Shown here: in pieces, positions 2,481-24,800 of the stretch
How the letters are laid out: the number at the start of each line of letters is the position of its first letter
How positions within the stretch are numbered: position 1 is the stretch's first letter
Assembly (NCBI GenBank): GCA_945869675.1
Contig: CAMBPS010000001.1
Location: 23,576 to 87,575, forward strand
DNA length: 64,000 nucleotides
Direction of reading: 5' to 3'
Source of the DNA: Prosthecobacter debontii
GTDB lineage: Bacteria; Verrucomicrobiota; Verrucomicrobiia; Verrucomicrobiales; Verrucomicrobiaceae
Program-made: the position numbers and the translations under genes
Notes under the pieces: generated by a model
Told to the model about the DNA's origin: nothing
The model's database searches: none
What the model saw: the letters and a program-made list of their open reading frames with translations, nothing else

Positions 2481-3149
2481 ATGTTGAAATACTTCTTCCT
2501 CAGTTACGTCTTCGTTGCGGCCATCGTAGTGGCCGCTTTCGGCACACGCGGCAGTAAGTCCGAATTGCCGCCTATTGAGATCTTCCAAGACATGGATCAT
2601 CAGGCTAAAATCAAATACCAGGCTCACAGCGACTTTTTTGCCGATGGTCTGGGCGGTCGCCAACTGGTTAAGCATACCGTGCCAATGGGATTCGAAGTGC
2701 CTGCAAAGCCTGTTTCTTCGCCAGATGCAGCGCCTCCAGACTACGGTTTCAGCAACGGGCTTGATTACTACAGCACGGGCAAGCTCGGCGATTTTTATGG
2801 TGACGGGTTGCCAGAGCAAATCGTCGCGGACAAAGCACTCCTCCAACGTGGCGAACGTCAATATGGTATTTACTGTGGCGTCTGCCACGGTGCTTCTGGT
2901 AACGGAAAGGGAGTCACCTCGAAATATGGCATTTTAGCGGCCTTCAATTTCCATCAGACGGGCTCGATGGATCCTGCCAATGCAGGCGCATACCGCGCAG
3001 ACGGAGCGATTTTTGATGTCATCTCGAATGGTAAGGGCCTCATGGGTTCTTATGGTGGTAACCTCACTGTTCGTGACCGCTGGGCCATTGTGGCCTACAT
3101 CCGCGCCCTTCAGGTAGCGGTTAAAGAAGGAAACGTTTCTGTCCAGTAA
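2481..3149 (+). CDS. actE: Alternative complex III monoheme cytochrome c subunit ActE
   Basis: DMDHQAKIKYQ matches the ActE DMxxQxKxxxQ motif; single CGVCH heme motif; distal Met in GLMGSYG; RWAIVAYIRALQ tail; directly followed by actF. Confidence 0.85.
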   Translation: MLKYFFLSYVFVAAIVVAAFGTRGSKSELPPIEIFQDMDHQAKIKYQAHSDFFADGLGGRQLVKHTVPMGFEVPAKPVSSPDAAPPDYGFSNGLDYYSTGKLGDFYGDGLPEQIVADKALLQRGERQYGIYCGVCHGASGNGKGVTSKYGILAAFNFHQTGSMDPANAGAYRADGAIFDVISNGKGLMGSYGGNLTVRDRWAIVAYIRALQVAVKEGNVSVQ

Positions 3150-3167: not shown

Positions 3168-4469
3168 ATGAGTCACCACGTCACATTCAACGATCTCCCT
3201 CAAGGCGGCGAGAAGTTTGAGCCAGCCAAAGGCAGCAAGCTCATCAATGGTCTTGGGGCCCTAGGCGCTCTCGGGCTTTTGGTTTCGATCTACCTTTTTA
3301 GCACAAATACGGATAGCTTTGCCTACTCGTGGCTTTTTGCTTTCTTTTTCTCATTCACGCTTGTTTGCGGAGGTTGTTTCTGGATTTTGCTGCACAATGC
3401 CTCAAATTCTGGTTGGGGTATTTCTCTTCGTCGTCTTTGGGAGCAACTTGCTAACATGGCGCTGCCGCTGGCCATTCTTGGTATACCTCTTTTGATCCCG
3501 GCCGTTCAAAAGCCTTTGTATGAGTGGATGGGACACCATCGTGATGCGGCTCACCACATGAGCGAGCATGTTTCCACGGTTAAAGAAGCACTACATCATG
3601 CTTCAGAGACCAATCCTCATCTGCACATTCTCGTTCAGAAGTTTGGGTATCTTAATATCACCGCTTGGTATGTTCGCTACTTTGTTTACTTTGGCATCCT
3701 AGCTCTTATTGCTAGCGTTCTGCGCGGAAAATCGGTCAAGCAGGATCTCGATGGAGATATCAAGCATACCATCAAAGCGCGGGCTTTCTGCTGTACTTGG
3801 ATGCTTTTCTTTGCCCTGACGGTGACCTTCGCGGCTGTCGACTGGCTAATGTCTCTGGATTACTCATGGTTCTCAACCATGTGGGGTGTTTACATTTTTG
3901 CTGGCTGTGCTTGGTCCTCCATGGCGTTGACCATTCTTTTGGTGACTTGGCTGCGTGGGATGGGTTACCTGCAAAAAGTGGTTTCTGAGGAGCATTACCA
4001 CATCATGGGCAAGTTCGTTTTGGCCTTTACCATCTTCTGGGCTTACATCGCCTTCAGCCAGTACTTCCTCATCTGGTATGCTAATATCACCGAAGAGACA
4101 CGGTTTTACCTGACTCGAAACACGGAAGGCTGGCGTGATGTTTCTATCTTTATTGTGGTGGGACATTTCATTGCACCCTTTGTGCTTCTCCTATCCCAGC
4201 CGCGCAAGAAAAAGCCAGCTGTGATCAGCGGGATCTGTCTTTGGATTCTTTTCATGCACATCGTCGATATCTATTGGAATGTGATTCCTGAGCGTGGACC
4301 TTCCCTCGGTCAGGGGGTTGTTATTCCTGGTGCATGGGTGGGTGATATCGTCGCTCTTTGCACCTTTGTGGGGCTCTTGGGTTTCCTTTTCCTTCGAAGC
4401 TTGGCACGTTACAGCCTGTATCCTTGCCGCGATCCTCGTCTGCTTGAGTCCGCTAATGTTGTTAACTAA
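3168..4469 (+). CDS. actF: Alternative complex III membrane subunit ActF (NrfD-like paralog)
   Basis: About 10 TM helices; motifs DWLMSLDYSWFSTMWG, FTIFWAYIAFSQYFLIWYANITEET and YWNVIP typical of ActF; follows actE. Confidence 0.88.
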   Translation: MSHHVTFNDLPQGGEKFEPAKGSKLINGLGALGALGLLVSIYLFSTNTDSFAYSWLFAFFFSFTLVCGGCFWILLHNASNSGWGISLRRLWEQLANMALPLAILGIPLLIPAVQKPLYEWMGHHRDAAHHMSEHVSTVKEALHHASETNPHLHILVQKFGYLNITAWYVRYFVYFGILALIASVLRGKSVKQDLDGDIKHTIKARAFCCTWMLFFALTVTFAAVDWLMSLDYSWFSTMWGVYIFAGCAWSSMALTILLVTWLRGMGYLQKVVSEEHYHIMGKFVLAFTIFWAYIAFSQYFLIWYANITEETRFYLTRNTEGWRDVSIFIVVGHFIAPFVLLLSQPRKKKPAVISGICLWILFMHIVDIYWNVIPERGPSLGQGVVIPGAWVGDIVALCTFVGLLGFLFLRSLARYSLYPCRDPRLLESANVVN

Positions 4470-4477
4470 TTGTTGTC

Positions 4478-4855
4478 ATGTCTCCTCCTGCGATTCATTC
4501 TAAATCTGGTTCCAGTTTCTTCTGGGTGCTGGCAGCATTTGCTAGCTTTGCAGTTCTCTTTTTGATCATCCAGACTCTGGCCGCCAAGCCTGGTGCTGAG
4601 GACCCTCGGGCGCCTGAGCGGATCGCTAATTCGGCTGAAATCATGAAAGCCCAATCTGAGATCATCGCTAACATGGGCTTGAATGACGCCACCAAAAAGA
4701 CAGTTATTTTTGACAAAACCTTGGCTGTTCTCAATTCCCGCAAGCCATCTATCAGCACGCAAGTGGTGCCTGGCTCGCCAACTCAAATGAAGCAGGCTGC
4801 GGCACCAGCGACTCCCGCTGCTTCGCCAGCAACGGTAACACCTGCAATCAAATAA
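4478..4855 (+). CDS. Single-pass membrane protein of unknown function (positional ActG-like candidate)
   Basis: One N-terminal hydrophobic helix, a helical soluble part and an Ala/Pro tail; tightly packed between actF and the ccoN-like gene. Confidence 0.65.
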   Translation: MSPPAIHSKSGSSFFWVLAAFASFAVLFLIIQTLAAKPGAEDPRAPERIANSAEIMKAQSEIIANMGLNDATKKTVIFDKTLAVLNSRKPSISTQVVPGSPTQMKQAAAPATPAASPATVTPAIK

Positions 4856-4872: not shown

Positions 4873-6360
4873 ATGCAGACGACCTCCTCATCCGCAGATA
4901 CAGACGTTCAGGCTGACAATCTTCGCCGCGCGGCGATTGACAAGTCAGTTAAGGGCCCTGTGCTGTTCCTCTTCCTCAACGGCGCTTTTTGGTTGATGGC
5001 TTCCACCATTCTTGGTGTGCTGGCTGCCTTGAAGCTCTTTGCTCCGTCTTTTTTGGGTGACTGCCCTGTTCTTCAATACGGTCGCTTACAGCCAACCCAC
5101 TTAAATGCCCTTGTTTACGGTTGGGGTGTGCAAGCTGGTCTGGGCGTCATGCTTTGGATTATGGCTCGTCGTTCGGGGCAAGAATTGAAGAGCGGTAAAA
5201 GCGTTCTCTATGTCGCTGGTATCTTTTGGAACATAGCGGTGACACTTGGATTACTGAGTATTCTTTTTGGCGGTAGCACGTCCATCGAGTGGTTGGAAAT
5301 GCCAAAGTGGGTCTGGCCGATTATGCTTGCCGCTTTCCTTTGCTTTGCGTGGCCTATGACAACTATGTTTGCCCGTGCTTTTCGTCCCGAAGGTTTCATG
5401 GTTAGCACATGGTACATCTTGGGTGCTTGCTTTTGGTTCCCATGGATCTTCGTTACAGCGAATGTCGCCCTCCATTGCCTTCCTGGATTGGGTGCCTTCG
5501 GTGCAGGTGTTAATGCATGGTATGTTCACGCTGTGATCATGCTGTTTTTTGCTCCTGTGGCTATTGGTTCCGCTTATTACTTTATCCCCAAAATCACTGG
5601 TCAGCCTATTGCAAGTTCACAGCTCGCTCAAATGGGATTCTGGGCGTTGGCCTGCCTCGGTGGATGGACAGGAATGCAACATTACATGGGTGGACCTCTT
5701 CCTGCCTGGATGCCAGCTATTGGTTCTTTAGCTTCCGTTTTATTGCTCGTCCCGGTGGGTGTTGTGGGTCTGAATCATCACCTTACAACTCTGGGGAAGC
5801 ATCATCTCGTTGCCTCTAGTCCAACTCTTCGATTCACCTTTTTGGGAGCACTGTTCTACCCGATTTCTGGAGTGATTCTTGCTCTAATTTCCAATTTCAC
5901 TACAGGGCCGACCCTGCAATTCACCAATGCTTGGTATGGTTTCCAAATTGTGGCTGTTTATGGATTTTTCAGCATGAGTGTTTTTGGTGCCATCTATTAT
6001 ATTGTTCCTCGCTTAACAGGTTGTGAATGGCTATCAGTTCGCTTAATCCGCAACCACTTCTGGTTCTCGACCTATGGTATCGCCACTGTCGTAATCACCA
6101 GCCTTGTGGCAGGTGTGCAGCAGGGTGGGGATTTGAATCATCCTGAAATGTGGGATCAAGATTTCTATCAGTTGGTCATGAATACTCAGCCTTATATCAT
6201 CGCTCGTGCGGTTGCTTGGGGATTGATTACATGGTCCAATATTTGGTTTTTAGTTCATCTCATGCTTATGGTGGCCGGTCTCGGTCGTCGCAGTTCGGCA
6301 CCTACGCTTCTGCACCATGGTCATGATGAATCTTCTCTTCCGCACGGAGCACACGCATGA
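4873..6360 (+). CDS. cbb3-type oxidase subunit I-like (CcoN-like) protein with degenerate active site
   Basis: Colinear with CcoN motifs: YGRLQPTHLN, STSIEWLEMP, WYVHAV, YYFIPK, GPLPAW, SPTLRF, IYYIVPRL, NHFW. HH is replaced by QH and GHVH by GFQI. Confidence 0.85.
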   Translation: MQTTSSSADTDVQADNLRRAAIDKSVKGPVLFLFLNGAFWLMASTILGVLAALKLFAPSFLGDCPVLQYGRLQPTHLNALVYGWGVQAGLGVMLWIMARRSGQELKSGKSVLYVAGIFWNIAVTLGLLSILFGGSTSIEWLEMPKWVWPIMLAAFLCFAWPMTTMFARAFRPEGFMVSTWYILGACFWFPWIFVTANVALHCLPGLGAFGAGVNAWYVHAVIMLFFAPVAIGSAYYFIPKITGQPIASSQLAQMGFWALACLGGWTGMQHYMGGPLPAWMPAIGSLASVLLLVPVGVVGLNHHLTTLGKHHLVASSPTLRFTFLGALFYPISGVILALISNFTTGPTLQFTNAWYGFQIVAVYGFFSMSVFGAIYYIVPRLTGCEWLSVRLIRNHFWFSTYGIATVVITSLVAGVQQGGDLNHPEMWDQDFYQLVMNTQPYIIARAVAWGLITWSNIWFLVHLMLMVAGLGRRSSAPTLLHHGHDESSLPHGAHA

Positions 6361-7025
6361 GCAACTTCCGCACGTTCATTCTCGCACTTACTGCTAGCTT
6401 CGGTTTTCCGTGGCTTTGCCTCATCATCATTCCAGCCATCAAGTATCAGGCTTTGACGCCAGTTGCTTATGATAAAGACAAAGACGGTGTCGAGGGGTTT
6501 TATCCGCCTGCGCCTATCAATCGTCAGGGTCAATTGACCTATGCCCGTGAAGGATGTGCTCAGTGTCACACGCAGATGATACGCCCAACGCAGCTCTCTC
6601 TTGACGGCTGGCACAAAGGATGGGGTCAGGATCAAGAGGCTCGTCCCGCAGCTCCAGTGCGTTCCAATACTCTCCTGGATTATCTTGGTGAGCCATACGC
6701 TTTCTTGGGTGTTCAACGTTTGGGCCCAGATTTAACGAATTACGGCTGGCGCGCTCCATCACGTCAGGAAATGCACGTCATGCTCTATGCTCCACGCCAG
6801 CGTCATGATTGGTCGAATATGCCAGCATTCAAGAATCTCTATGAAGTGCGTCTTGCCCAAGGTCCTAAGTCTGAACTGGCCCTCAAGCTTTCCAAGCCCT
6901 TCGCTCCTGAAGTCGGCTATGAAGTGGTCCCGACTCCAGAAGCTGAGGCTTTGGTTGATTATTTGCTGTCACTTAAGAAAGATAATCCCATTCCAGGCAT
7001 CACTGCTGCCGCTGTAAAGAAGTAA
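6357..7025 (+). CDS. ccoO: cbb3-type oxidase subunit II-like monoheme cytochrome c (CcoO-like)
   Basis: YAREGCAQCHTQMIRP, GVQRLGPDL and SNMPAF match the CcoO signature; N-terminal TM helix; ATGA overlap with the ccoN-like gene. Confidence 0.85.
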   Translation: MSNFRTFILALTASFGFPWLCLIIIPAIKYQALTPVAYDKDKDGVEGFYPPAPINRQGQLTYAREGCAQCHTQMIRPTQLSLDGWHKGWGQDQEARPAAPVRSNTLLDYLGEPYAFLGVQRLGPDLTNYGWRAPSRQEMHVMLYAPRQRHDWSNMPAFKNLYEVRLAQGPKSELALKLSKPFAPEVGYEVVPTPEAEALVDYLLSLKKDNPIPGITAAAVKK

Positions 7026-7037
7026 CGCCCACCATTC

Positions 7038-7760
7038 ATGAGCGCACCCTCCAATAATTTTCAACCCGATAGCACAGATCTAGATCGCCTTCACTCTGCA
7101 GTGACGCGTGAGAAGGAAGACCTCCAGGCTGGTCGTGAACCTGCATCCATGCTTGTCATGTTCCTTGGCATGCTGGTTGCTGTGATTGCCGGTGGACAGT
7201 TCAGCGCTGTGGGAGGCAAGCAAGAATTCGGAACAAGCACAGCTTTCAATTATGAGTCAGGTGCCGATCCTCGTCCCGGTGGAGGCGCTGGTGCTTTAGC
7301 CATGGACCCATTTCAAACCGCCATGAAAAAAGGTGCAGGTGGTTACGCCGTTTGTGGTGGTTGCCATCAGGGGAGTGGTCTAGGACTTCCCGGTCAATTT
7401 CCACCTCTGGCTGGCTCTGAGTGGGTTTTAGGCGGAACTGAGCGTCTGATTCGCGTCGTCCAACACGGTCTAGTTGGTGCGATCACAGTGAAGGGACAAG
7501 GTTACAATACTCCTGGTGGTATGCAGGGTTTTGGAGCTGCCATGTCTGCAGGTGATTTCGCTAATGTGCTGACGTTCATTCGTAATAGTTGGGGCAATGA
7601 AGCTCCGATGATCACCAAGGAAATGGTCGAGAAAGTTCGCTCCACTGAGAAGCGTGGCACTCAATGGACCATGCCTGAACTTGAAACTTTCGCCAAAGTT
7701 AATGTTGAGGGCCTGATTCCCGCTGGACCTGGTGCCACAGCAGCGCCTACTGCTAAGTGA
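7038..7760 (+). CDS. Membrane-anchored monoheme class I cytochrome c
   Basis: One TM helix then YAVCGGCHQGSGLGLPGQFPPLAGSEWV, distal Met in GGMQGF, and VLTFIRNSWGN. Confidence 0.88.
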   Translation: MSAPSNNFQPDSTDLDRLHSAVTREKEDLQAGREPASMLVMFLGMLVAVIAGGQFSAVGGKQEFGTSTAFNYESGADPRPGGGAGALAMDPFQTAMKKGAGGYAVCGGCHQGSGLGLPGQFPPLAGSEWVLGGTERLIRVVQHGLVGAITVKGQGYNTPGGMQGFGAAMSAGDFANVLTFIRNSWGNEAPMITKEMVEKVRSTEKRGTQWTMPELETFAKVNVEGLIPAGPGATAAPTAK

Positions 7761-8581
7761 TTGGAGATATCATGATTTATATGACGCAGTTCATTTCTAG
7801 CAAGGTGCCATTAGTGGCCTTAGCTATGATTGCACTGCACACTATCACTGCCTGCGGAAAAATACCTGAAGCGTCTCGTGCTAATCTATTGCCAGCGATC
7901 AATATTGCTCAAAAATTAAGTCTCCAAGGCAAAGTAATTCTTTCAGGAGGCAAGCCAGCCTCGATGGGGCAGGTGATTGACGTTGGACAAAATCCTCTTT
8001 GCGCAGGCCATAGCGCTCTCACCAATCCAACCTGGAGAGTTTCTGAAGATGGCGGATTGGAGGATGTTGTCATCAGTGTTCGTCAAACGGCGCGATCAAT
8101 TAGCACTGCCAATAGTTCCCCCCTGATCAATCAAAGAAATTGTGAATTCCAGCCATTTATGACTGTAGCGCAGCCGGGTCAGACAGTGCGACTTCAGAAC
8201 AGCGACATGACCTTCCACAACATTCGTATTGTTCAGCATCAATTAGGCACTATCGCCGCAGGTGAAAATCTGGTTAATTTGGCGCAACCTGCTCGTGGTG
8301 ATGAAAATTTGCATAGCTTTGACCAACCGGGAATTTATCGCTTAGAATGTGATGTTCATCGTTGGATGCGAGCATGGGTCTATGTCCATGATGGTGTTCA
8401 TGCCGTGGCAACCTCCAAAGATGGAACGTATGAACTGAATCATGCACTGATTGATGGCGTTTACGAGGTATCAGCGTGGCATCCAATGTTTTCACAGAAG
8501 TTAACCCAAACTGTTGCCATTCGGAATGGACAGGGCAGGGCTGATTTCTCCTTTGATCTTAAAAATTCATTCAATCTTTGA
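7757..8581 (+). CDS. Putative lipoprotein with cupredoxin-like domain and C-terminal beta-sandwich; true start may be a downstream ATG
   Basis: Lipobox-like ITA-C (C33); NQRNCEFQP; His154 (TFHNI) and C198-D-V-H201-R-W-M204. Confidence 0.75.
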   Translation: MIGDIMIYMTQFISSKVPLVALAMIALHTITACGKIPEASRANLLPAINIAQKLSLQGKVILSGGKPASMGQVIDVGQNPLCAGHSALTNPTWRVSEDGGLEDVVISVRQTARSISTANSSPLINQRNCEFQPFMTVAQPGQTVRLQNSDMTFHNIRIVQHQLGTIAAGENLVNLAQPARGDENLHSFDQPGIYRLECDVHRWMRAWVYVHDGVHAVATSKDGTYELNHALIDGVYEVSAWHPMFSQKLTQTVAIRNGQGRADFSFDLKNSFNL

Positions 8582-8648: not shown

Positions 8649-10598
8649 ATGAGCGCTGCTACAATTTCCAACGACCATACCAACGATCACGGCCATGACC
8701 ATCATGAACTGAGTTTCCTCAAAAAGTACATCTGGTCGACCGATCATAAAGTCATCGGCATTCAGTATGCGGTGAGTGGGTTACTCTTCCTGCTGTTTGG
8801 ATTCTTCCTGATGATGATGATGCGTTGGAGCATCGCCTATCCAGGTCAACCTATTCCGGGATTCGGTTTCGTGACTAGCATTCCTGTGATTGGCGATTTG
8901 TTTCAGGAAATGATTGGACGCTGGGCGCCTGGTGGCGTTGTCAATGGTGAGCTATACAATATGCTAGGTGCCATGCACGGAACAATCATGGTCTTTCTCG
9001 GGATTGTGCCTCTCGGTTTTGCTGGATTCGTGAACTTTGTCATGCCTCTCCAAATTGGCACGATTGATATGGCCTTTCCTCGTCTGAACATGTGGAGTTA
9101 TTGGCTCTTCTTCGTTAGTGGTGTCATGATGTTTGCGAGTTTCTTCTTGGGAACGGGGTCAGTGCAGACTGGGTGGACGATGTATTCGCCTTTGGCATCA
9201 ACAACAGGTTTAGCTGTGACCAATGTATGGATGCATGGTCATACTTGGTGGTTGCTTGCCATGGTGTTTAATATTTCCGCATCACTTTTGGGATCAGTGA
9301 ACGTCATCACGACGATTATCAATCTGCGTGCCAAAGGTTTGACTTGGATGCGCATGCCGTTCTTCTGCTGGGCCATGTTTATCGTTTCTTTCCTGCTACT
9401 TTTGGCTTTCCCGCCTCTTGAGGTAGCTGCGCTGCTTCAGCTTATGGACCGTGTGTTTGGCGCTAGCTTCTTCTTGCCGACAGGTCTGATGGAAGGTGGG
9501 CAACATCTGGACATCGCTGGTGGTGGCAGCCCGCTGCTTTATCAGCACTTGTTCTGGTTCTTAGCTCACCCAGAGGTGTACGTCTTGATCCTGCCTGCCT
9601 TCGCGATTCTGACTGAAGTGATCCCTGCTAATACTCGTCGTCCTCTTTGGGGTTACAAAGCCATGGTGTATGCTGCTTTGACCTTGGGTTTCCTCAGTTT
9701 CCTTGTTTGGGCTCATCACATGTATCTGACGGGCATGGGCACCATGATGTCCACCTACTTCCAGATCACCACGGTTCTGATCTCCGTTCCATCCGTCATC
9801 CTACTCACGGGTCTCATGATTTCTCTCTGGGGTGGTTCCATTCGGTTTACGCCTCAGATGCTTTTCGCTTCGGCTTTCTTGCCGATGTTTGGTATCGGTG
9901 GTCTTACGGGCTTGCCTTTGGCTTTTACCTTCATCGACCTTGCTCTACATGACACCTATTACGTCATTGGACACTTCCATTACGTGGTTGCTCCTGGGAC
10001 AATCTTTGGTCTCTTCGCAGGTGTTTACCACTGGTATCCAAAAGCCACAGGGCGAATCATGAATGATTTTCTGGGCAAACTTCACTTCTGGCCATCGCTG
10101 CTGGGAATGAATATGATCTTCGCGCCGATGTTTATTCAAGGTATGGGGGGGTTCCATCGCCGCTGGTATGATGGTGGTAAATACTTCGAGCAGACTTCCA
10201 GTGCTTCCAACTGGTTTACTGAACTTAATTCCGGTTTTTTTAGTCTGTTCGGCATGGACGTGCCAAACAATCTTCTTGGGCTGAATGTCCTGATGTCAGT
10301 TGGTGCCTTCGTTCTCGCTCTGGGGCAGGTTCCTTTCATTCTCAATTTCTTCCTCAGTATTAAAGGTGGCAAAAAAGTCGAGAACGACAATCCATGGGCA
10401 GCAACGACTCTTGAGTGGGCGGCTCCGACACCTCCTCCGCATGGTAACTTTGACTTTGAGCCCATCGTCGTTCGTGGCCCTTATGAATATAGTGTTCCTG
10501 GTATGGATCAGGATTTCTTCCCGCAGTGGGAATCAGAGCCAGGTAAGCGCGCGGAGCCATCGGCTGCCCCAGCACCAGCCATTGTTGCTCATCATTGA
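8649..10598 (+). CDS. ctaD: Cytochrome c oxidase subunit I, A-family (A1-type HPEVY)
   Basis: Heme/Cu ligands all present (GAMHG, LAHPEVY, WAHHM, GHFHY); D-channel D140 (DMAFPRLN); RR pair in GFHRRW. Confidence 0.97.
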   Translation: MSAATISNDHTNDHGHDHHELSFLKKYIWSTDHKVIGIQYAVSGLLFLLFGFFLMMMMRWSIAYPGQPIPGFGFVTSIPVIGDLFQEMIGRWAPGGVVNGELYNMLGAMHGTIMVFLGIVPLGFAGFVNFVMPLQIGTIDMAFPRLNMWSYWLFFVSGVMMFASFFLGTGSVQTGWTMYSPLASTTGLAVTNVWMHGHTWWLLAMVFNISASLLGSVNVITTIINLRAKGLTWMRMPFFCWAMFIVSFLLLLAFPPLEVAALLQLMDRVFGASFFLPTGLMEGGQHLDIAGGGSPLLYQHLFWFLAHPEVYVLILPAFAILTEVIPANTRRPLWGYKAMVYAALTLGFLSFLVWAHHMYLTGMGTMMSTYFQITTVLISVPSVILLTGLMISLWGGSIRFTPQMLFASAFLPMFGIGGLTGLPLAFTFIDLALHDTYYVIGHFHYVVAPGTIFGLFAGVYHWYPKATGRIMNDFLGKLHFWPSLLGMNMIFAPMFIQGMGGFHRRWYDGGKYFEQTSSASNWFTELNSGFFSLFGMDVPNNLLGLNVLMSVGAFVLALGQVPFILNFFLSIKGGKKVENDNPWAATTLEWAAPTPPPHGNFDFEPIVVRGPYEYSVPGMDQDFFPQWESEPGKRAEPSAAPAPAIVAHH

Positions 10599-10639: not shown

Positions 10640-12031
10640 ATGGACATTCCTTACACAGTCTCCGCCCGCCCAGATACGGGCTTGTATAACGCCAAAGTCG
10701 GCATCTGGCTTTTCCTCGCTTCTGAGGTCATGCTCTTCGGGGGGCTTTTCTCTTCCTACATCTTCTTGCGTGTTGGTGCGGACTATCCGTGGCCAGTTCA
10801 TGAGTTGAATGTGACCCTTGGTTTTATCAATACATTGGTTCTTATTGGTTCTTCCGTCACTGTGTTGCTTGCATGGGCTTCTATCAAACTCCGTAAATTT
10901 GGAGCCTACAAAGTTTACATGGCCATCACCATCCTTTGTGCCATGACCTTCATGGTCATCAAAAGCTTTGAGTATAAAGCCAAATTTGAGCATTACTCGG
11001 TTACTCTAACGGATGGCACGATCCTAACGGGTCACTTGCCGAATGGTTTTGAGATTGAATTCGGCGATGTTAAGGAGCTCAGCCTGACGATCTCAGGTAA
11101 GACATCTGCTGTCGACGCCGACCCTGTAGGTTACGTGCTCCCCTACCTCAAAGGAACCGCCCCGAAGTTCAAAACACAGGCGGGTGTTGAGATTGACTTG
11201 AACAAAGAAAGCTTCGCAGTCTTGAAAGCCGAAGTGCTTGCAGCTGCCAAAGCTAAAGCCACCAATTCTAAAGAGCTTCCGTCAACCACGATCAAGTTAG
11301 TTGCGGCATCTCCGATGACATTCTCGGTTCCAATGTCCAAGTTCTTAGCCCGCCCAGCGCTAGACGCCAAATCGTTTACCTTTCGTGATGGCACTTCAGT
11401 CGAGGGTAAAATTATCAATGATAAGATGACTCTTGAAGTCGATGGACTGGATGTCCGCGGCACACCTGACAAAGAGAAGTCTTTGGCGTTTAACGAGCAT
11501 TATCTCGGAACTGCCTGGAAGAATGCTTTCATTCATCAGAGAGATGAAGCCATCGCTGTATTCAAAAAGGAATTCGATGACGGTAAAGGCGGCACCTCTC
11601 GTGATCCTAAAAAGAGTGCAACTCAGCAAAAGAAGCTCTTTTACGTTCACATTCACTCAGCCACTCCTGAAGCCCATACCGAAGAAGGAGGCGCGCACAA
11701 AACTGAGGCTCATGCACCAGTTGAAGAGCATGGCTCGGCTCACGCGGGTCATCATCCTGAAGTGAAGCTGGAGCGAAAAGATGTTCAGTTCTTCTCTAAC
11801 TTCACACCAAAGCTGAATAGCTACTACGCCATCTATTTCACTCTCACTGGGCTGCATGGGCTACATGTGATCGCAGGTGCTTTAGTATTGGCTTACTTCT
11901 TGGTTTTTGATGGTCGCCGTCTGCGTGAAGACCCTGAGCACATGGCCAACCGTGTCGAAGTCGGTGGCCTCTTCTGGCACTTTGTAGATTTGGTCTGGAT
12001 CTTCCTGTTCCCACTCTTGTATCTCTTATAA
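10640..12031 (+). CDS. ctaE: Cytochrome c oxidase subunit III with a large soluble insertion
   Basis: [36 protein letters not shown] and [19 protein letters not shown], separated by a ~270-aa hydrophilic insert. Confidence 0.92.
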
Positions 12032-12055
12032 CCGCACCCTTTACCGTCCCTTATT

Positions 12056-12400
12056 ATGGCTGATAGCCCTGAAGAAATTTACAAATCCATCCGCAAGATT
12101 AAGCTGATCGGCTTGGTGCTTGCTGTTTTCACCGTGCTCACCGTTGGACTTTCTTATGTAGAGCTACCTACCCATAGCTTGAATATGATGGTCGGCATGC
12201 TCCTAGCAACCATCAAGGCAGCCTTGGTCGCTTTGATTTTCATGCATTTAAATCACGAAAAAGCGTTGGTTTATAAAATCCTCGCTTTCACGGTTGCTTT
12301 CGCTGTCGCTTTATTTGTTCTTTTTTACCTCAGTAACTCTGAAGGCCTGATTGATGAGGGCTTTGAGAATTCTACTGCTATCATCGAGTCTCAGGAGTAG
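12056..12400 (+). CDS. ctaF: Cytochrome c oxidase subunit IV (CtaF-like)
   Basis: Three TM helices with LTVLTV and KAALVALIFMHL motifs; follows subunit III. Confidence 0.85.
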   Translation: MADSPEEIYKSIRKIKLIGLVLAVFTVLTVGLSYVELPTHSLNMMVGMLLATIKAALVALIFMHLNHEKALVYKILAFTVAFAVALFVLFYLSNSEGLIDEGFENSTAIIESQE

Positions 12401-12429
12401 TCATCACTCAGTATCATCATCCATCCACT

Positions 12430-12636
12430 ATGTCACTGAAACACTTCCACTACGTTTTTCTGTTTTTTGCAGTTCTCTGCGATGGCGGTTTCTGGTTGTG
12501 GACGCGTCTTCAGCCAAGTGTCTCTGCTGAACTCGGGATAGGCATTTTGGGCTCGATCGCTGGCTGGACTAGTCTTGTCCTCGTTGCTTACAGCGTTTGG
12601 TATCTTTCGAAAAAATCGAAAACGATCATCGTCTGA
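12430..12636 (+). CDS. Small two-TM membrane protein of unknown function in the oxidase operon
   Basis: 68 aa with two hydrophobic helices, MSLKHFHYVF N-terminus and Lys-rich C-terminus; co-oriented within the operon. Confidence 0.6.
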   Translation: MSLKHFHYVFLFFAVLCDGGFWLWTRLQPSVSAELGIGILGSIAGWTSLVLVAYSVWYLSKKSKTIIV

Positions 12637-12672
12637 GCCATTTCCCATCTTCAATCGTTCTCTCATTAATCT

Positions 12673-12846
12673 ATGCTGACTCTCGCCTGCGCTACTTGCA
12701 AAGCTGATCCAAACAGTGTCATCGCTCAGGCGCAAGACATTGCTGTTTTGGTGATGCTGGCGTTTCTGGTTTTAGGCATGAGTTTTGTGGGATTGATCGT
12801 CTGGAACTTTGTCCGCAAACAGCAGAAGGCTGCCGTAACCTTTTAA
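12673..12846 (+). CDS. 57-aa CxxC plus single-TM protein (absent from the ORF track)
   Basis: Translated by hand: MLTLACATCKADPNSVIAQAQDIAVLVMLAFLVLGMSFVGLIVWNFVRKQQKAAVTF*. It fills the gap before ctaC. Confidence 0.7.
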   Translation: MLTLACATCKADPNSVIAQAQDIAVLVMLAFLVLGMSFVGLIVWNFVRKQQKAAVTF

Positions 12847-12878
12847 CATTTTATCCCCCGCCCCCTCCTTATTTACCT

Positions 12879-13670
12879 ATGAGTATTTCAGACATCAACG
12901 TTTGGCTTGGTATGACGCAGAACGCTTCAGAGCATGGAGGTCTTGTGGACCACATGCTTGGTTTTGTTCACTGGTTCATGTTGGTTCTTTTCATTGGATG
13001 GTCCACCTTCTTAGCAATCGCATTTTATAAGTTTCGGGCCACCAAGAATGCCAAAGCTGATTACCATGGCGTTCGCGGTCATGCGACGACACACATCGAA
13101 ATCGGTGTTTGTATTGTGGAAGCCATTCTGCTTCTCGGTTTCGCATTCCCGCTATGGCACCATCAAGCCGATGAGTTCCCAACTGGCTCAGATACTGTGA
13201 AGATTCGCGCCATGGGGGAGAAGTTTCTCTGGAATTTCCAGTATTCGGGTAACGATAAGATGCTTAGCACCTGGGATCCACGCGCCATTTCTCAATCCAA
13301 TCAAACGGGTCGCGAACTGACTGATCCAAATGGTAAGGATGATTTTGTAAATCCGGGAACCATGAAGCTGCCCTTGGGGCGTCCCGTCATCATTGATGTT
13401 ACCAGTAAAGACGTAATTCACAACTTGGCTCTCGTTCCGATGCGCGCCGCTCAAGATGCCTGCCCTGGCGTGAAAGCGCACATGTGGTTTAAGCCAGTGA
13501 AGACGGGTAGTTGGGACATCATTTGTGGTCAACTTTGTGGCCCTGGTCATGCCCAGATGAAAGCCATGCTTGAAGTGGTTGAAACTGCTGAGTTTGACGA
13601 ATGGTCTAAGGAACAATCTAACAGTGCTGCGGTGAAGAGTGCAGCACCCGCTCCTCTGGCAGTTCGCTAA
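12879..13670 (+). CDS. ctaC: Cytochrome c oxidase subunit II (CuA), without fused cytochrome c
   Basis: Two TM helices; EKFLWNFQY aromatic loop; DVIH and CGQLCGPGHAQM CuA ligands. Confidence 0.95.
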   Translation: MSISDINVWLGMTQNASEHGGLVDHMLGFVHWFMLVLFIGWSTFLAIAFYKFRATKNAKADYHGVRGHATTHIEIGVCIVEAILLLGFAFPLWHHQADEFPTGSDTVKIRAMGEKFLWNFQYSGNDKMLSTWDPRAISQSNQTGRELTDPNGKDDFVNPGTMKLPLGRPVIIDVTSKDVIHNLALVPMRAAQDACPGVKAHMWFKPVKTGSWDIICGQLCGPGHAQMKAMLEVVETAEFDEWSKEQSNSAAVKSAAPAPLAVR

Positions 13671-13706
13671 TGCCATTTGCGGGCGTTTTTGATCCGCTAA
13701 ATTTGA

Positions 13707-13735
13707 CAAAAGTGCGGACTTAGGTCCGCATTTTT
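13707..13735 (+). terminator. Rho-independent terminator-like hairpin after ctaC
   Basis: AAAAG-TGCGGAC-TTAG-GTCCGCA-TTTTT. Confidence 0.65.
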
Positions 13736-13754
13736 CGTTTCCTCATTACCCACC

Positions 13755-14843
13755 ATGCAGATTTTCCATTGGTTTTCTCGTTTTACCCTTCTTGTGGGTC
13801 TTGTGCTCATTTGGTGGGGCGCTGCGGTGACGACCGAAGATGTCGGGTTGGCTGTTCCTGATTGGCCGCTTGCTTTTGGAAAAATCAATCCTGAGGGCTG
13901 GATGAAGGTGCCAGCTTTGTTTCTCGAACATGGTCACCGCTGGATTGCTACGACCATTGGTTTTTTGGTTTTGGGCATGTATTTCTGGCAGTTTTCGCGA
14001 TGCAAACCGAGATTGATCGAAGCTGCTGGTATTATCCTTATTGGGTGCGGCTATTTGGTTTTGATTTTCAAAGGCTTCCTCGGTCTGGCTATGGTCATCG
14101 TCGTGATGAGTTTATTATGGTTGATCATGAATTGGATTGGTCAGCGCTGGAGTCTGCTGCGTGGGCTGACGACCTTGGCTCTTTTTTTGGTGATCATTCA
14201 GGCTTCTCTCGGTGGTCTTCGGGTTTTGAAAATGTCTGATCCGTATGGCATTAGTCACGGCACTCTAGGGCAGCTGTTTTTTTGTTTGCTGGTTTTCATT
14301 TCCTTTGCCTCGTCTAGAACGTGGCATTCAGAATCGTTGGTGATTCAGAAAAATTGCCAGTCTGCGCGAGCTTGGAGTTTGATTCTCTTTTTGGCTGTCT
14401 TCGGTCAACTCATCATTGGGGCGACGTTGAGGCATACGCAGCGCATGCATTTGGCCGCGAACGATATTTTGACCACGAAGGGCCAGCTTTTCCCGCCAAT
14501 GGATCCTGCGGATGTGTTTGTGCTGCACCTGCACAAGTATTGGGGGTTCTCGGTCGCCTTACTTGTTCTCGTAGTGGCTTGGAAATCTCGTTCTTGGCTG
14601 GGCCGGGTGCCGCGTTTGCGGTGGATTTCTCCTGCACTCATGATTATGCCGATTAACCAAGTCGTTTTGGGGATTTATGTGGTTCTGACCGGCAAAAGCT
14701 TCTGGGTCACCAATCTGCATGTATTGAATGGCCTTGGTTTGCTGGTGCTGACTTTTTTACTGGCCGTCAGCGTCTGGGCTTCGACCGCCGGACTTGGATT
14801 GAATGAGCAGACAAAGGCTGACAAACCCCTGTCCCCAACCTAG
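13755..14843 (+). CDS. ctaA: Heme A synthase (COX15/CtaA)
   Basis: VPDWP, EHGHR, SHGTLGQ, HLHK and NLHV conserved His motifs; adjacent to ctaB. Confidence 0.88.
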   Translation: MQIFHWFSRFTLLVGLVLIWWGAAVTTEDVGLAVPDWPLAFGKINPEGWMKVPALFLEHGHRWIATTIGFLVLGMYFWQFSRCKPRLIEAAGIILIGCGYLVLIFKGFLGLAMVIVVMSLLWLIMNWIGQRWSLLRGLTTLALFLVIIQASLGGLRVLKMSDPYGISHGTLGQLFFCLLVFISFASSRTWHSESLVIQKNCQSARAWSLILFLAVFGQLIIGATLRHTQRMHLAANDILTTKGQLFPPMDPADVFVLHLHKYWGFSVALLVLVVAWKSRSWLGRVPRLRWISPALMIMPINQVVLGIYVVLTGKSFWVTNLHVLNGLGLLVLTFLLAVSVWASTAGLGLNEQTKADKPLSPT

Positions 14844-14852
14844 TTTCACCTC

Positions 14853-15821
14853 ATGACCAAAGATGATTCTACTGCGTCGGCTTCCGCTCTACCATTGCCA
14901 CCAGCTGTGAGTGGAGAGCCCGTGGCCTTTACCCTGAATGATTTGCTGACGCTGACGAAGTTCCGGCTCAGCGCTTTGGTAATCGTGACGACTTTTGTGG
15001 CGTTCTGGTTGAGGGCTGGGACACAAATGAATTTCTGGCTGCTCCTGCACACCATCATTGGTAGTACCTTAGCAGCCTTTGGTGCAGCTGTGTTTAATCA
15101 GCTGATGGAGATCGAGCCAGACTCTCGTATGAGCCGAACGGCAGATCGCCCCCTGCCTGCTGGTCGCATCAGTCCTTCGTTGGCTTTTGGGTTGGGATGG
15201 CTGCTTAGCGCCATGGGGTTGATTCATTTGGTGCATCGAGTCAATATGGAGGCTGCTGCTTTGACGGCGCTGACACTAGCGACTTATCTCTTCATCTACA
15301 CGCCTCTGAAAAAGCAGTCCGCTGTGAATACCTTGGTCGGAGCTGTTTCGGGTGCTTTACCGCCATTGATTGGTTGGGCTGGTGCTGCCGGTTTCTCGGA
15401 AAAAACAGAAGCATACTTTCGCTGGAGTCTTCTCTGGGAGCCTGGTGCTATTTATCTATTCATGCTTTTGTTCCTCTGGCAGTTACCGCATTTCCTGGCG
15501 ATCAACTGGATGTATCGAGATGAGTATCGCCGAGGTGGATTTGTCATGCTGGCTAATGATGATGAACTAGGTGCTCGCACTTCACGCCATGCTCTGGCCT
15601 GGGCTGTCGCTATGCTGTTGCTGATGTTTTATCCTGTTGCCTTTGGGCTGGTGAAGCTGTGGCTATTTCTTCCTGTGGCACTGCTTTTAAATGTGTGGCT
15701 TTGTCAGCGGGCCTTAGTGTTTCAAAAGAATCCTGAACGGGCGACTGCGCGTCGGCTCTTTTTTGGAACGCTGATTTATCTTCCAGTTATTTTATTGATC
15801 ACGGCCTTGGCCTGGAAGTGA
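14853..15821 (+). CDS. ctaB: Protoheme IX farnesyltransferase (heme O synthase)
   Basis: NQLMEIEPDSRMSRTADRPLPAGR, YTPLKK, GALPPLIGW, WQLPHF. Confidence 0.96.
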   Translation: MTKDDSTASASALPLPPAVSGEPVAFTLNDLLTLTKFRLSALVIVTTFVAFWLRAGTQMNFWLLLHTIIGSTLAAFGAAVFNQLMEIEPDSRMSRTADRPLPAGRISPSLAFGLGWLLSAMGLIHLVHRVNMEAAALTALTLATYLFIYTPLKKQSAVNTLVGAVSGALPPLIGWAGAAGFSEKTEAYFRWSLLWEPGAIYLFMLLFLWQLPHFLAINWMYRDEYRRGGFVMLANDDELGARTSRHALAWAVAMLLLMFYPVAFGLVKLWLFLPVALLLNVWLCQRALVFQKNPERATARRLFFGTLIYLPVILLITALAWK

Positions 15822-15855
15822 TCGTCGATAGATTGAACCAACTCCTTTTTGACCT

Positions 15856-16608
15856 ATGTCTACAGATCCAATTCCAGAGGCTCCGCGCCGCATCAATCCT
15901 CTGACCTTATGGGTGCCGATTATCTTCATTGTTCTCGGGGTGGTAGTTTTCTACAATTATCTCATCTACACCTCCATGGAGGCTAAGAAGAACAAAGAAA
16001 CCCTGACGGATGGTCAAGGCACCACACGCAGTTCCGAGCGTCCGGCTTACCTGGGGCGATTGGAGAAGGATTTGGAGCTTGTTGAGCGCAGCGGTAAGAC
16101 CGTTCATTTGGCCGATTTGCGCGGAAAGATCATTATTGCTTCCTGGGTCTTTACGCGTTGCCCGCGTGGTTGTGCTGGGGTGATCGCCAAATTAAAAAAG
16201 CTATACGCTGAACTGGGCGACAATCCGAACGTGCAGTTTATCTCCTTTACGCTGGACCCGGACGATACGCCCGAGATGATGAAAGCCTGGGCCAGCGGTG
16301 TGGGTATCAAGGATACTGACAACTGGTGGTTTCTCAATGGTCCGAAGGATGTGGTGCGCAAATACATGACCTTTTCTTTTCAATTTCGTCCGGTGCAGGA
16401 TCTCCCGGAGGCGGACCGCCTGACACCTGATGATAAATACATCCATGATTTACGCGTTGCACTAGTCGATCATGCTGGGCATGTGCGTGGGCTGCATGAC
16501 ATTATGAATGCGGATCCCCAGTTCCAAGAATACTGGGATAAACAAATCCGCACCGATCTGAACTACCTCCTCGAAGAACAAAAAAAAGCCAAAGACAAGA
16601 CACCATGA
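15856..16608 (+). CDS. sco: SCO/SenC family copper chaperone
   Basis: N-terminal TM helix, FTRCPRGC (CxxxC), SFTLDPDDT and conserved His in YIHD. Confidence 0.92.
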   Translation: MSTDPIPEAPRRINPLTLWVPIIFIVLGVVVFYNYLIYTSMEAKKNKETLTDGQGTTRSSERPAYLGRLEKDLELVERSGKTVHLADLRGKIIIASWVFTRCPRGCAGVIAKLKKLYAELGDNPNVQFISFTLDPDDTPEMMKAWASGVGIKDTDNWWFLNGPKDVVRKYMTFSFQFRPVQDLPEADRLTPDDKYIHDLRVALVDHAGHVRGLHDIMNADPQFQEYWDKQIRTDLNYLLEEQKKAKDKTP

Positions 16609-21803: not shown

Positions 21804-24800
21804 ACGCCATCCCCAATGAAATGATCCTGGCCTCTGCTGGCTCAGGTAAAACGTGGCAACTGACAAATCGCTTCATCGCACTCATGGGTCAGCAATTGCT
21901 AGCGGGTCAAGAAGTCACCCCAGAGCGGATCGTCGCTGTCACGTTCACACGCAAAGCGGCGGGAGAATTCTTTGACTCGATCCTTGTAAAACTGGCCAAA
22001 GCCTCCTCGGATCAGAAGTTTGCAATGTCACTCGCCGGAGATGAATCCATCGATCCCGAAGTGGTGAATGATCCACTCAGGCCCATCATGAGTCAGCTGA
22101 CGCAAGCGGATTTTCGTCAACTGCTACGCTGCTTTATCACGCGCATGCCACGCCTGTTTCTGGGCACCCTAGATAGTTTTTTTTCAGCGATCCTGCGCAG
22201 CTTTCCAGCTGAGTTTGGATTGGCGGGCGACTTTGAACTCCTCAGCGGTCATCAAGGCCGTGTGGAGCGTGAGCGCGTTTATCGACTCGTCTTTCAGCGC
22301 ACTTTGCCTGAGCTCAAATCTAGAACGGAGAGTCTTAGTGCGCAGAAGGATTTTTTGGAAGCTTTCCGCCGGGCTACCTTTGGCAAGGAAGAAGCGAACA
22401 TCCGCACAGTCTTGGATCAGTTTGTGGAAAATCAGCATGGCATTCTTCTGCATGCTGCTGGTCGCGAGCTCTGGGGAGATGCTGGCACGATCTGGCCTAA
22501 TGGCTGTCTCTGGTTGACGGAGAAGCTGGATTTGGACAAGGCTTTTCAGCATCTGTTCAGGCTTTTGGAAAGTGATGATGTCAGCGAAAAAGCTTGGGAC
22601 TTTTGGAGTGAATTCCAGGAACAGGCTCTCACTCACATTCCTGGCAGGACCATGCCTAAACGAGTCAAATTTTTCATGGAAAGAGCACTGGAATGCTGGT
22701 CAGATATTCAATCCAAGAACTGCATTATCACCGTCAATCGGCAGAAGCAAAAGATCACAGGCCGCAGTTGTGATGCCTTGAGAGACATCATCACTCACTT
22801 GGGTGGAGCTGAAATCGAGGTTAGACTGGAGCGCACACAGGGTGCCTGGCAGGTGCTTAGTTTGTTTGAAAACATCTGGTCTCAGCAGGTGCGTCGCCGC
22901 GGACGACTCACGTTTCAGGACATGGAGCTCATCCTAGCTGGCCATGAATTCACCAATGATTTGCCACGTCCGATGCTTTCCCAAGTGCCCGGAGTAGAGG
23001 AGCGACTACGTATCGACTATCGGCTGGATGCACGCTACGATCATTGGCTGCTGGACGAGTTTCAGGACACAAACTACACGCAATGGTCGGTGATTGAAAA
23101 CCTGATTGATGAAGCGGTGCAGGACACTTCTGATGAACGCACGCTGTTTCAAGTGGGTGATGTCAAGCAAGCCATCTATGCCTGGCGTGGAGGCGATACG
23201 CGGTTGTTTGAAGACATTTCCAAACGCTACAATTCAGGCGTGGAAACACGCATTCATAAGCGGCCGCTGAACGTCTCTTGGCGCTCGGGTCATGATGTCA
23301 TCAGTCTGGTGAATCGGATCTTTGGAGATAACGCAGCTTTGGCCGAAATGGAGTTGCCTCAGCAGGCTCAGGAACGCTGGCCTTGGCAGGATCATCAAGT
23401 GGCAGGCATTCATCAAACAATGCCAGGTTATGCTGTGATGCTGCACCCCGTGCCAGCTGCAGGTGAAAAAGTGCAGGAGGAAGATCGCTTTGCTCTTGTC
23501 GCGGGGCTACTTGAAGAGATTCAGCCAATCATCCATGGCCTAAGTTGTGCTATCCTCGTCCAGTCCAATCGCACCGCCAGGAGCTTAGTGGATTATCTCC
23601 GAGCGCACTCCCCCTCACGCATTCCAGTCATGTGCGAGTCTGAGATTGCGGTGGCTACGGACAATCCCGTCACGCTCGCTTTACTCAGCCTCATGCGGTG
23701 TGCTGCCCACCCTGCGGACAGCTTGACCTGGCAGCATTTGATGATGACGCCTTTCCGAGAGGTCTTTGAATCGACCGGGATGAATCTTGGCAGGTTAGCC
23801 GCAGAGGTTCTCAGACAAATCTTTGATGATGGCTTTGAAATTAGCCTGCGTCATTGGCTGCATCTGCTGGTCAAAAACGGGATAAATTTAGACGCCTTCA
23901 GTCAAAGACGGACAGAAGACTTTGCTTTGGCCGCGCGTCTCTTTGATCAGAGCGGTAGTCGTGATATCGACGAGTTTCTATTGTATGCTGAAAGCTACAC
24001 CACAAGGGAAGCGGATACTCGCCATGCAGTGCAGGTCATGACAGTGCATAAATCCAAAGGGTTGACCTTTGATTGCGTGCTATTACCAGATTTAGAAGGC
24101 GAATCCATGACTACGGTTCGGCGGGGTATTGGGGTGAAGCATGGGGAAAAGCGTCTCGTCGAGTGGGTTATGGATCTTCCTCCTGGCGATATTGTTAGAG
24201 CCGATCCTGTGCTATCTGGATATCATAACGATCTCGAGGCCGAAGCTGCTTACGAGGAGTTATGCAAATTTTATGTGGCACTAACGCGCGCTAAACATGC
24301 GAATTATCTGATTGCTACGCCCCGCTCGGAGAGGTCCACGTCGAATAATTTCATCAAATTGCTCTCCCTAACGCTTGGGGATGAAACGGAGCCTGTCATG
24401 GAAAGTTTCGGGGGTATTGCAGCAGAGATTATTTATCAAAGTAAGACGCCTACCACTGATCGACGTTGGTTTGAGTCTCTTCCAGTGAAGGCACCAGAGA
24501 CACTGCCAGAGCCGGAATGTATCACCATCATGGCGGAGGGACGCTTGCGCCCGCAGCGCCGAACACCGAGTGGTTCTGAAACCAGTAGGGTCACAGCCAA
24601 ACAAATCTTCTCACGCAGTGGTCGGTCGGCACGCTCTTACGGCACTTTGGTTCATGCTTTTTTTGAGCAGATCCTCTGGTTGGATGAGATGTCTGCCTCA
24701 ACACTGCCAGAACTCTGGGCCGCTGTTCCCTGTCTGGATGAAAGTGCTCGCATCAAAGCACTCGAAGAAGTTCACCGTTGTCTGGCCGCGCCAACGATTG

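Follow-up and report, generated by a model that had tools for sequence, protein, structure and literature searches.

Gene Arrangement and the CcoN* Reading Frame

The 64,000-nucleotide stretch of Prosthecobacter debontii DNA analyzed here (GenBank assembly GCA_945869675.1, contig CAMBPS010000001.1, positions 23,576 to 87,575 of the forward strand; "the window" in the following) contains a long, co-directional respiratory gene cluster on the + strand; the Tex gene upstream of it is unrelated. Within this cluster, following two genes for subunits of alternative complex III (ACIII) and a gene for a small membrane protein, lies an uninterrupted open reading frame (ORF) for a 495-amino-acid homolog of CcoN, subunit I of cbb3-type cytochrome c oxidases, here designated CcoN*. 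Judged from its sequence and its modeled structure, CcoN* is a true CcoN-fold protein that would be unable to bind heme b3 or CuB, or to form the Tyr cofactor. Its features are listed below, with the canonical residues numbered as in Pseudomonas stutzeri.

4873..6360, + strand: CcoN*, 12-transmembrane CcoN-fold protein in which five of the seven heme, Cu and Tyr ligands are gone (alignment, AlphaFold2 (AF2) model, homolog conservation)
5098..5100, + strand: codon of H76, equivalent to P. stutzeri H60, a heme b ligand (phmmer alignment; His in 119/119 subfamily members)
Residue H219: CuB ligand position, equivalent to P. stutzeri H207 (phmmer alignment)
5659..5682, + strand: helix VII segment from G263 (Y251 position) to Q269-H270 (H257/H258 positions) (phmmer alignment and conservation)
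5773..5802, + strand: N301-H302-H303 ... K309-H310, cytoplasmic end of helix VIII and the next short helix (conservation; AF2 helix limits)
5941..5949, + strand: F357-Q358-I359, replacing H345-V-H347, the heme b3 and heme b ligands (phmmer alignment, conservation)

Loss of the Canonical Ligands

CcoN* was aligned to P. stutzeri CcoN (3mk7_A) by an unbiased phmmer comparison (E=1.5e-29), in which residues 236-338 align without gaps; its recognizable motifs are PTHLN (residues 74-78), IEWLE (138-142), WYVH (216-219), CLGGW (261-265), QH (269-270), NHH (301-303), KHH (309-311) and GFQI (356-359). The alignment confirms the ligand losses that the original prediction, made from the DNA alone, had proposed: the HH pair of the CuB site is QH, with Q269-H270 on the ligand positions H257-H258; the cross-linked helix VII Tyr is Gly, with G263 on Y251; and GHVH is GFQI, with F357 on H345, the proximal His of heme b3, and I359 on H347, the second heme b ligand. 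I335 falls on E323, so that the heme b3 His and its partner are both missing. The bis-His ligation of the low-spin heme b (H60 plus H347) is reduced to H76, which had correctly been read as the retained heme b His of helix II, and the three-His CuB set (H207, H257, H258) reads H219, Q269, H270. No alternative alignment of CcoN* places a His at the ligand positions of helix VII or helix X; a shifted alignment with the ligands back in place is rejected, since the region is gap-free and the structural match in Foldseek agrees with it.

The fold itself is intact in the AF2 model, which was built from a 22-sequence alignment (predicted local distance difference test score, pLDDT, 86; predicted template modeling score, pTM, 0.88). 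The best Foldseek matches of this model are cbb3 CcoN chains, with a template modeling score (TM-score) of 0.85/0.90 for 3mk7_A. Pfam COX1 recognizes the 12-transmembrane fold of subunit I of heme-copper oxidases (HCO) with 163 bits; the NCBIfam model TIGR00780 for ccoN scores 134.4 bits, far under its cutoff of 583.15. CcoN* thus resembles its P. stutzeri counterpart (3MK7/5DJQ) in its 12 transmembrane helices, in its TM-score of 0.85-0.90, in being alignable at E ~1e-30, and in a set of shared residues: the GR before helix II, E142 (P. stutzeri E125), the YYF.PK motif, N301 and H395. In contrast to cbb3 CcoN, it lacks the heme b3 His, the second heme b His, two of the three CuB His, the Tyr and E323.

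Ligand changes of this kind raise the question of a heme-copper enzyme with alternative chemistry and unconventional ligands, for example a reductase of NO or N2O or an NO dismutase. New active sites without the Tyr have arisen repeatedly within the HCO superfamily (Murali et al., 2024; PMC11214002), and the NO reductase cNOR is the next-best structural match to CcoN* after the C-family CcoN chains, below which the A- and B-family oxidases also rank. Like the Tyr-less families (NOD, N2O-red, eNOR, sNOR, gNOR, nNOR; PMC11214002), CcoN* departs from the O2-reducing arrangement of the active site; in contrast to the CcoN* family, which has lost heme ligands, those families are proposed enzymes that keep both hemes and a metal site, and all described variants retain the proximal His of the high-spin heme and at least two metal-site His (PMC11214002). 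In CcoN* and its subfamily, the proximal His position is F or Y and the metal site is without conserved His or Glu; most members of the wider family keep no ligand at all. NOR-like chemistry is rejected because the proximal His is missing, and the alternative-chemistry explanation as a whole is highly improbable.

Conservation Within the Verrucomicrobiaceae

A homolog search over 5.8 billion proteins returned 1223 matches to CcoN*; the best 120 of these are proteins of about 495 amino acids with 54-99% identity from Verrucomicrobiaceae (Prosthecobacter, Brevifollis, Phragmitibacter). In the subfamily set of 119 full-length homologs (54-99% identity to CcoN*), position 263 is G, A or S throughout, position 269 is Q in 115 members and N in 4, position 357 is F or Y in 115 and L or W in 4, and position 359 is I, L or V in 113 and M or T in 6; no member has either His of the former GHVH motif. 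The residue that separates the two lost ligands, at position 358, is Q, H, E or N in all 119. The remaining canonical ligands differ in their conservation. H219, which had been listed as kept, and H270, the second His of the CuB pair, are both present in this protein; H219 is His in only 76/119 (otherwise S, N or Q) and does not qualify as a conserved feature, and H270 is a relic, with His in 19/119 and R or K in 89/119.

The invariance of H76 (119/119) beside these eroding positions speaks for a Verrucomicrobiaceae CcoN* that still binds one heme b through H76, either five-coordinate or with a non-His sixth ligand, and takes electrons from the heme c of CcoO*, its cytochrome partner; such a protein would be redox-active, as an electron sink, a ligand sensor or a site of new chemistry. 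In canonical cbb3 oxidases, the CcoO heme c feeds heme b at the equivalent site. In the nearest outgroups, some sequences have H at position 76 and others A or F, and position 358 always offers one of the four residues named above. Intermediate forms exist as well: an Opitutales sequence (P0127) retains both heme ligand sets and H219 and has lost the CuB pair and the Tyr, with QY at the HH positions and A at the Tyr position. This reading is opposed by the ligand position across from H76, which is I, L, V, M or T in all 119 members, and by the wider family described below, which shares the operon and shows comparable conservation, yet mostly has A, F or Q at position 76 (57 A, 18 F and 14 Q among 129 representatives); the function of the family therefore does not need H76. 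A retained, redox-active heme b is in our judgment unlikely.

The original prediction had also pointed to new His residues in the NHH and KHH motifs. Conservation across the subfamily upholds H303 (118/119) and H310 (114/119), together with N301 (119/119), and does not uphold H302 (89/119) or H311 (14/119). Nor is NHH newly gained: ligand-complete relatives (P0126 and P0128) carry N-H-H, which therefore predates the ligand loss. H395 and H462 are invariant (119/119); H395 and N301 are ancestral, since they are conserved in canonical CcoN as well. By the helix boundaries of the AF2 model, each of H303, H310, H395 and H462 lies either where helix VIII, XI or XII ends on the cytoplasmic side or in the short helix of the VIII-IX loop, which would put them far from the former active site. 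An altered metal site made from gained His, one of the roles proposed earlier, is accordingly doubtful, given that half of these His vary, that NHH predates the loss, and that the conserved ones appear to be distant from the old site.

A related form of the gained-His proposal is a new metal-binding or proton-handling site at the cytoplasmic face, composed of H303, H310, H395, H462 and the His-rich C-terminal tail (HHGHDE...PHGAHA), which follows an invariant GLGRR..PTLL motif. Their near-invariance and their modeled cytoplasmic positions would fit such a site; the ancestral status of H395 and N301, the presence of H303 in P0126 and P0128, and the wider ligand-less family, in which N predominates at position 462 and positions 303 and 310 are variable, do not. 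We regard a dedicated cytoplasmic site as improbable.

Selection, Occurrence and Transcripts

Loss of essential ligands is what gene decay would yield, and the NCBIfam ccoN score of 134 against a cutoff of 583 would suit a decaying pseudogene or an assembly or sequencing artefact of a normal ccoN. This explanation is at odds with the ratio of nonsynonymous to synonymous substitutions (dN/dS; pairwise Nei-Gojobori, pairs with dS 0.05-1.5), whose median is 0.081 for CcoN*, 0.074 for CtaD, 0.102 for CcoO*, 0.118 for ActF and 0.171 for CtaE; purifying selection on CcoN* equals that on the functional CtaD encoded next door. The ORF is uninterrupted in more than 200 homologs, identical substitutions recur throughout the 54-99% identity range, and the AF2 model of the protein reaches the pLDDT given above. 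The genome collection contains 160 loci with CcoN* relatives, and ccoN* DNA was found in at least 20 independent metagenomes from lake, river, runoff and drinking water, which rules out a sequencing error. In four lake metatranscriptomes, contigs 95-99% identical cover ccoN* together with actE, actF, ctaD and ctaE; the depth of such contigs is a poor measure of expression. A pseudogene or sequencing error is rejected on the basis of dN/dS, fixed substitutions and metagenome recurrence, and we give this explanation almost no credence. The contrary view, that CcoN* is a maintained pseudoenzyme and not a decaying gene, is supported by its dN/dS, by synteny, by the transcript contigs and by the ligand poverty of 125 of the 129 nearest full-length representatives.

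Operon Context and Alternative Complex III

The genes that flank ccoN* on either side are the following.

2481..3149, + strand: ActE-like membrane-anchored monoheme cytochrome c of ACIII (Pfam Cytochrome_CBB3/Cytochrom_C; CGVCH; directly before ActF; synteny)
3168..4469, + strand: ActF, NrfD-like membrane subunit of ACIII (phmmer against PDB: R. marinus 6f0k_F, E=1.2e-52; also 8k9e_F, 6lod_F, 6btm_F)
4478..4855, + strand: small single-transmembrane protein of 125 amino acids at the ActG position (one N-terminal hydrophobic helix; tentatively assigned by position)
6357..7025, + strand: CcoO*, FixO-family monoheme cytochrome c, translationally coupled to CcoN* (Pfam FixO, 52 bits; CAQCH, MP Met motif)
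7038..7760, + strand: CcoP-like transmembrane-anchored monoheme cytochrome c (Pfam Cytochrom_C; weak ccoP match; CGGCH)

As in cbb3 operons, CcoN* is translationally coupled to a FixO/CcoO monoheme cytochrome, which is followed by a membrane-anchored cytochrome c. The ccoN* and ccoO* genes overlap by 4 nt (6357 vs. 6360), CcoO* matches PDB CcoO chains at E ~1e-10 to 1e-11, and its CAQCH and MP Met motifs are in place; the earlier description of an intact ORF coupled to a normal CcoO-like cytochrome was accurate. The small protein at 4478..4855 has no Pfam match; a one-transmembrane ORF of 98-153 amino acids occupies the same position in all relatives examined, including distant ones. The CcoP-like cytochrome c always follows CcoO* in the operons examined, and none of the CcoO* proteins and third cytochromes examined, including those of distant ligand-less operons, has lost CxxCH.

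All 80 Verrucomicrobiaceae loci share the order ActE-ActF-small protein-CcoN*-CcoO*-cytochrome c(-cupredoxin)-CtaDEF-CoxB-CtaA, so that actE, actF, the small gene and ccoN* stand in one cluster in 80/80. In about 40 of the 80 loci, which belong to a P. fluviatilis-like clade, actABCD lies directly upstream and actABCDEF is contiguous. In the clade of the window, the break in the act operon falls exactly between actD and actE, and actEF stay with CcoN*; in Brevifollis gellanilyticus, a member of this clade, the act genes found on another contig (BKAG01000038) are actABCD, and the run ends after actD. The 64-kb window contains no actA-D, and the Tex gene stands upstream of actE instead. In the closest genome relative (L001, 97% identity), a 1602-amino-acid ORF (L001 2411-7219) that the window lacks is located between Tex and actE.

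The Wider Ligand-Poor Family

Among 1.84 billion cluster representatives scanned exhaustively with HMMER, 1821 relatives of CcoN* were detected, 316 of them at E<=1e-30. Seven canonical ligands were scored in the 129 full-length members among the top 150 of the 1821. No ligand is kept in 71 representatives, one in 39, two in 12, three in 2 and four in 1; none keeps five or six, and 4 keep all seven. The distribution is sharply bimodal, with all 7 kept or no more than 4 (the latter in 125/129), and many of the 129 representatives have a two-residue deletion at the site of the HH pair. In a rough neighbor-joining tree, the four ligand-complete sequences are basal and the ligand-poor ones form a derived cluster. 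One ligand-complete form, P0128 (641 amino acids), has an N-terminal membrane extension of about 150 amino acids. Two natural fusions, P0224 (706 amino acids) and P0247 (667 amino acids), each combine a CcoN* without ligands and a CcoO* with CxxCH preserved. Names available from two cluster look-ups were Verrucomicrobiales, Opitutales, "Verrucomicrobia bacterium" and one Methylomirabilota metagenome-assembled genome (MAG). The positions equivalent to S240/H243, which reportedly line the proton input channel of cbb3 (Buschmann et al. 2010), are A or G throughout the family; it is therefore less likely that protons are still conducted by the former route.

A fixed module of actABCDEF, a small one-transmembrane protein, CcoN*, CcoO* and a monoheme cytochrome c appears in every ligand-poor relative whose neighborhood was examined. 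Three very distant loci with 0 or 1 ligand (L081-L083) have actA-B-C-D-E-F, a one-transmembrane protein of 98-124 amino acids, CcoN*, CcoO* and the monoheme cytochrome c, ten genes in all; an Opitutales locus (L085) has the same act-CcoN*-CcoO*-cytochrome c order on a contig that stops just past the cytochrome gene. Collecting homologs next to actEF, as proposed at the outset, gave the predicted outcome. What the sequence-only reading had missed was the scale: CcoN* belongs to a large ACIII-tied family and is not the peculiarity of one ORF.

The ligand-complete P0126 (CP074694.1, locus L084), among the closest sequence relatives of CcoN* (333 bits) and sharing its N-H-H motif, is encoded in an operon of identical order: actA-B-C/D-E-F, then the small-protein gene, ccoN, ccoO and the gene for a monoheme cytochrome c. 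In contrast to the window operon, it retains all 7 ligands and includes a FixS/CcoS-like gene before CcoN and a P-type ATPase after the cytochrome c gene that follows CcoO, the maturation factors expected for a real cbb3 oxidase. Neither the CcoN* operon nor the window contains ccoGHIS-type genes.

The Downstream aa3 Oxidase and Other Genes of the Window

Downstream of the cytochromes, the cluster continues with a cupredoxin and genes for an A-family oxidase.

7757..8581, + strand: predicted lipoprotein cupredoxin, a possible blue-copper carrier, 274 amino acids (weak Pfam Copper-bind, CarboxypepD_reg; ITAC lipobox-like; C-x2-H-x2-M)
8649..10598, + strand: CtaD, A-family oxidase subunit I with all ligands (Pfam COX1, 413 bits; TIGR02891, 532 bits)
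10640..12400, + strand: CtaE (subunit III, with a large insertion) and CtaF (subunit IV) (profile matches)
12879..16608, + strand: CoxB with CuA motif, then CtaA, CtaB and Sco1/SenC (Pfam COX2, COX15-CtaA, UbiA, SCO1-SenC; CGQLCGPGHAQM)

The ligand set of CtaD is complete (H110, HPEVY 307-311, HH 356/357, HFH 442/444); the protein, of 649 amino acids, is also rich in His at its N-terminus (HTNDHGHDHHE), ends in AHH and contains an insertion that the CtaD model lacks; CcoN* likewise has a His-rich C-terminus. The cupredoxin, situated between the CcoP-like cytochrome and ctaD and missing from about 20 related loci, combines an amicyanin-like C-x2-H-x2-M motif with a C-terminal domain that resembles CarboxypepD_reg; between ACIII and aa3, it could act as a carrier in the manner of auracyanin. 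In CtaE (10640-12031, 463 amino acids), the COX3 halves at residues 18-123 and 387-461 are split by an insertion of about 260 residues. The 480 nt between ctaDEF and coxB (12400-12879) hold two ORFs for small membrane proteins (12430-12636, 68 amino acids, about 2 transmembrane helices; 12673-12846, 57 amino acids, 1 transmembrane helix), and metatranscriptome contigs of three runs break at 12515/12555, unlike the window sequence, which suggests an indel in related populations.

No second oxidase is encoded in the remainder of the window, where the genes are housekeeping genes; an Rfam scan of the window gave no match. The remainder includes an AddAB-like helicase-nuclease pair at 18819-25108 and a 2169-amino-acid ORF at 53557-60066.

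Comparison With Known Systems

A catalytic fold that is kept structurally after cofactor loss may have an analog within ACIII itself, whose ActB1 domain is a molybdopterin-free relic; we know of no description of a heme-copper oxidase subunit I as a cofactor-less relic subunit. ActB1 has been described as homologous to complex iron-sulfur molybdoenzymes (CISM; PMC5928083). That oxidase genes can follow an ACIII cluster is well established (PMC5928083), and the window cluster resembles the ACIII-aa3/caa3 supercomplexes of F. johnsoniae (Sun et al., 2018) and R. marinus (PMC5928083) in that act genes precede an A-family oxidase; in these supercomplexes, no soluble carrier is believed to be needed for electron transfer from ActE/ActA to the oxidase (PMC5928083). 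In contrast to these systems, whose operons and structures have no CcoN/CcoO-like subunit, the window cluster has the three genes of a relic cbb3 module after actF(G) and before the aa3 genes. Reviews note a C-type oxidase beside ACIII in verrucomicrobial methanotrophs and Opitutaceae and take it for a functional high-affinity oxidase (PMC8498564, PMC6688271). The full-text literature searched contains no description of a heme-ligand-less, ACIII-linked CcoN family; outside that search remain Refojo et al. (2010) and Muntyan et al. (2015; PNAS 112:7695), whose "unknown group", mentioned in PMC5492636, could be related.

A Possible Origin From an ACIII-cbb3 Supercomplex

We favor, with moderate confidence, an explanation in which CcoN* is a non-catalytic membrane scaffold derived from an ACIII-cbb3 supercomplex and holds c-type cytochromes that relay electrons from ACIII. 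The ancestor would have had an act-ccoNO-cytochrome c operon with a working cbb3 oxidase, most likely docked to ACIII; P0126, with all its ligands and its CcoS-like and P-type ATPase assembly genes, would be a survivor of this ancestral form. In the lineage leading to P. debontii, the binuclear center (heme b3, CuB, Tyr) would have been lost, along with the second heme b ligand and the presumed polar residues of the proton channel, and the 12-helix body would have been retained under strong purifying selection. This body may now serve as a platform in the membrane for two single-helix cytochromes with intact CxxCH, CcoO* and the CcoP-like protein, and would set one or two c-type hemes beside ActE/ActF, lengthening the heme wire of ActA/ActE. 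The likely acceptor in this organism would be the fully liganded aa3 oxidase encoded immediately downstream, with its CuA-bearing CoxB, possibly reached via the cupredoxin. The explanation starts from the observed ligand loss, fold, selection, synteny, heme c motif retention and transcript contigs; that the module physically associates with ACIII, that electrons flow in this direction and that heme b is wholly absent we infer. Among the roles suggested in the original prediction, a scaffold or electron-relay anchor is the best supported, and it is the likely mechanism.

Several points weigh against this explanation. Published ACIII structures (R. marinus, F. johnsoniae) have no CcoN*/CcoO*-type subunit, and their source organisms are without the module (PMC5928083); binding of CcoN*/CcoO* to ACIII or aa3 is itself presumed. 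H76 is invariant while the relic H219 decays, which suggests a remaining function, possibly a single-His heme, that a pure scaffold would not need. The four further invariant or near-invariant His of the cytoplasmic face and the His-rich tail are likewise not accounted for by a scaffold. In the distant loci L081-L083, no respiratory gene follows the operon and no oxidase is encoded nearby. Finally, carry-over of DNA is possible in the metatranscriptome contigs.

Beyond the scaffold explanation, we propose more tentatively, and with some reserve, that the trio of CcoN*, CcoO* and cytochrome c is an integral, previously unrecognized module of a widespread ACIII subtype: a fossilized ACIII-cbb3 supercomplex whose oxidase body would now be cofactor-free or hold a single heme. 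In the Verrucomicrobiaceae, CcoN* may additionally keep a five-coordinate heme b at H76 or a site at the cytoplasmic His cluster, with a role in redox reactions or sensing.

Implications

As far as ligand patterns can tell, the finding generalizes from one ORF to a large ACIII-associated family, and the "cbb3 oxidase" annotations in these bacteria are probably not those of O2 reducers. Annotation pipelines and genome papers label CcoN* proteins as "cbb3-type cytochrome c oxidase subunit I", and cbb3 genes are widely taken as a marker of microaerobic respiration (PMC8407424). Because a large ligand-less clade carries the cbb3 annotation, many of the "cbb3 oxidase" assignments made in Verrucomicrobiota and in allied MAGs would, if the finding holds, be false, together with the microaerobic inferences built on them. 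The family would also point to an ancestral ACIII-cbb3 supercomplex and to ACIII subunits that are missing from the solved structures. It may serve as a natural experiment on what the body of an oxidase subunit I does without its cofactors, and the bimodal ligand counts, together with the Opitutales form that keeps the heme ligands and lacks CuB, would offer a tractable series from respiratory enzyme to pseudoenzyme.

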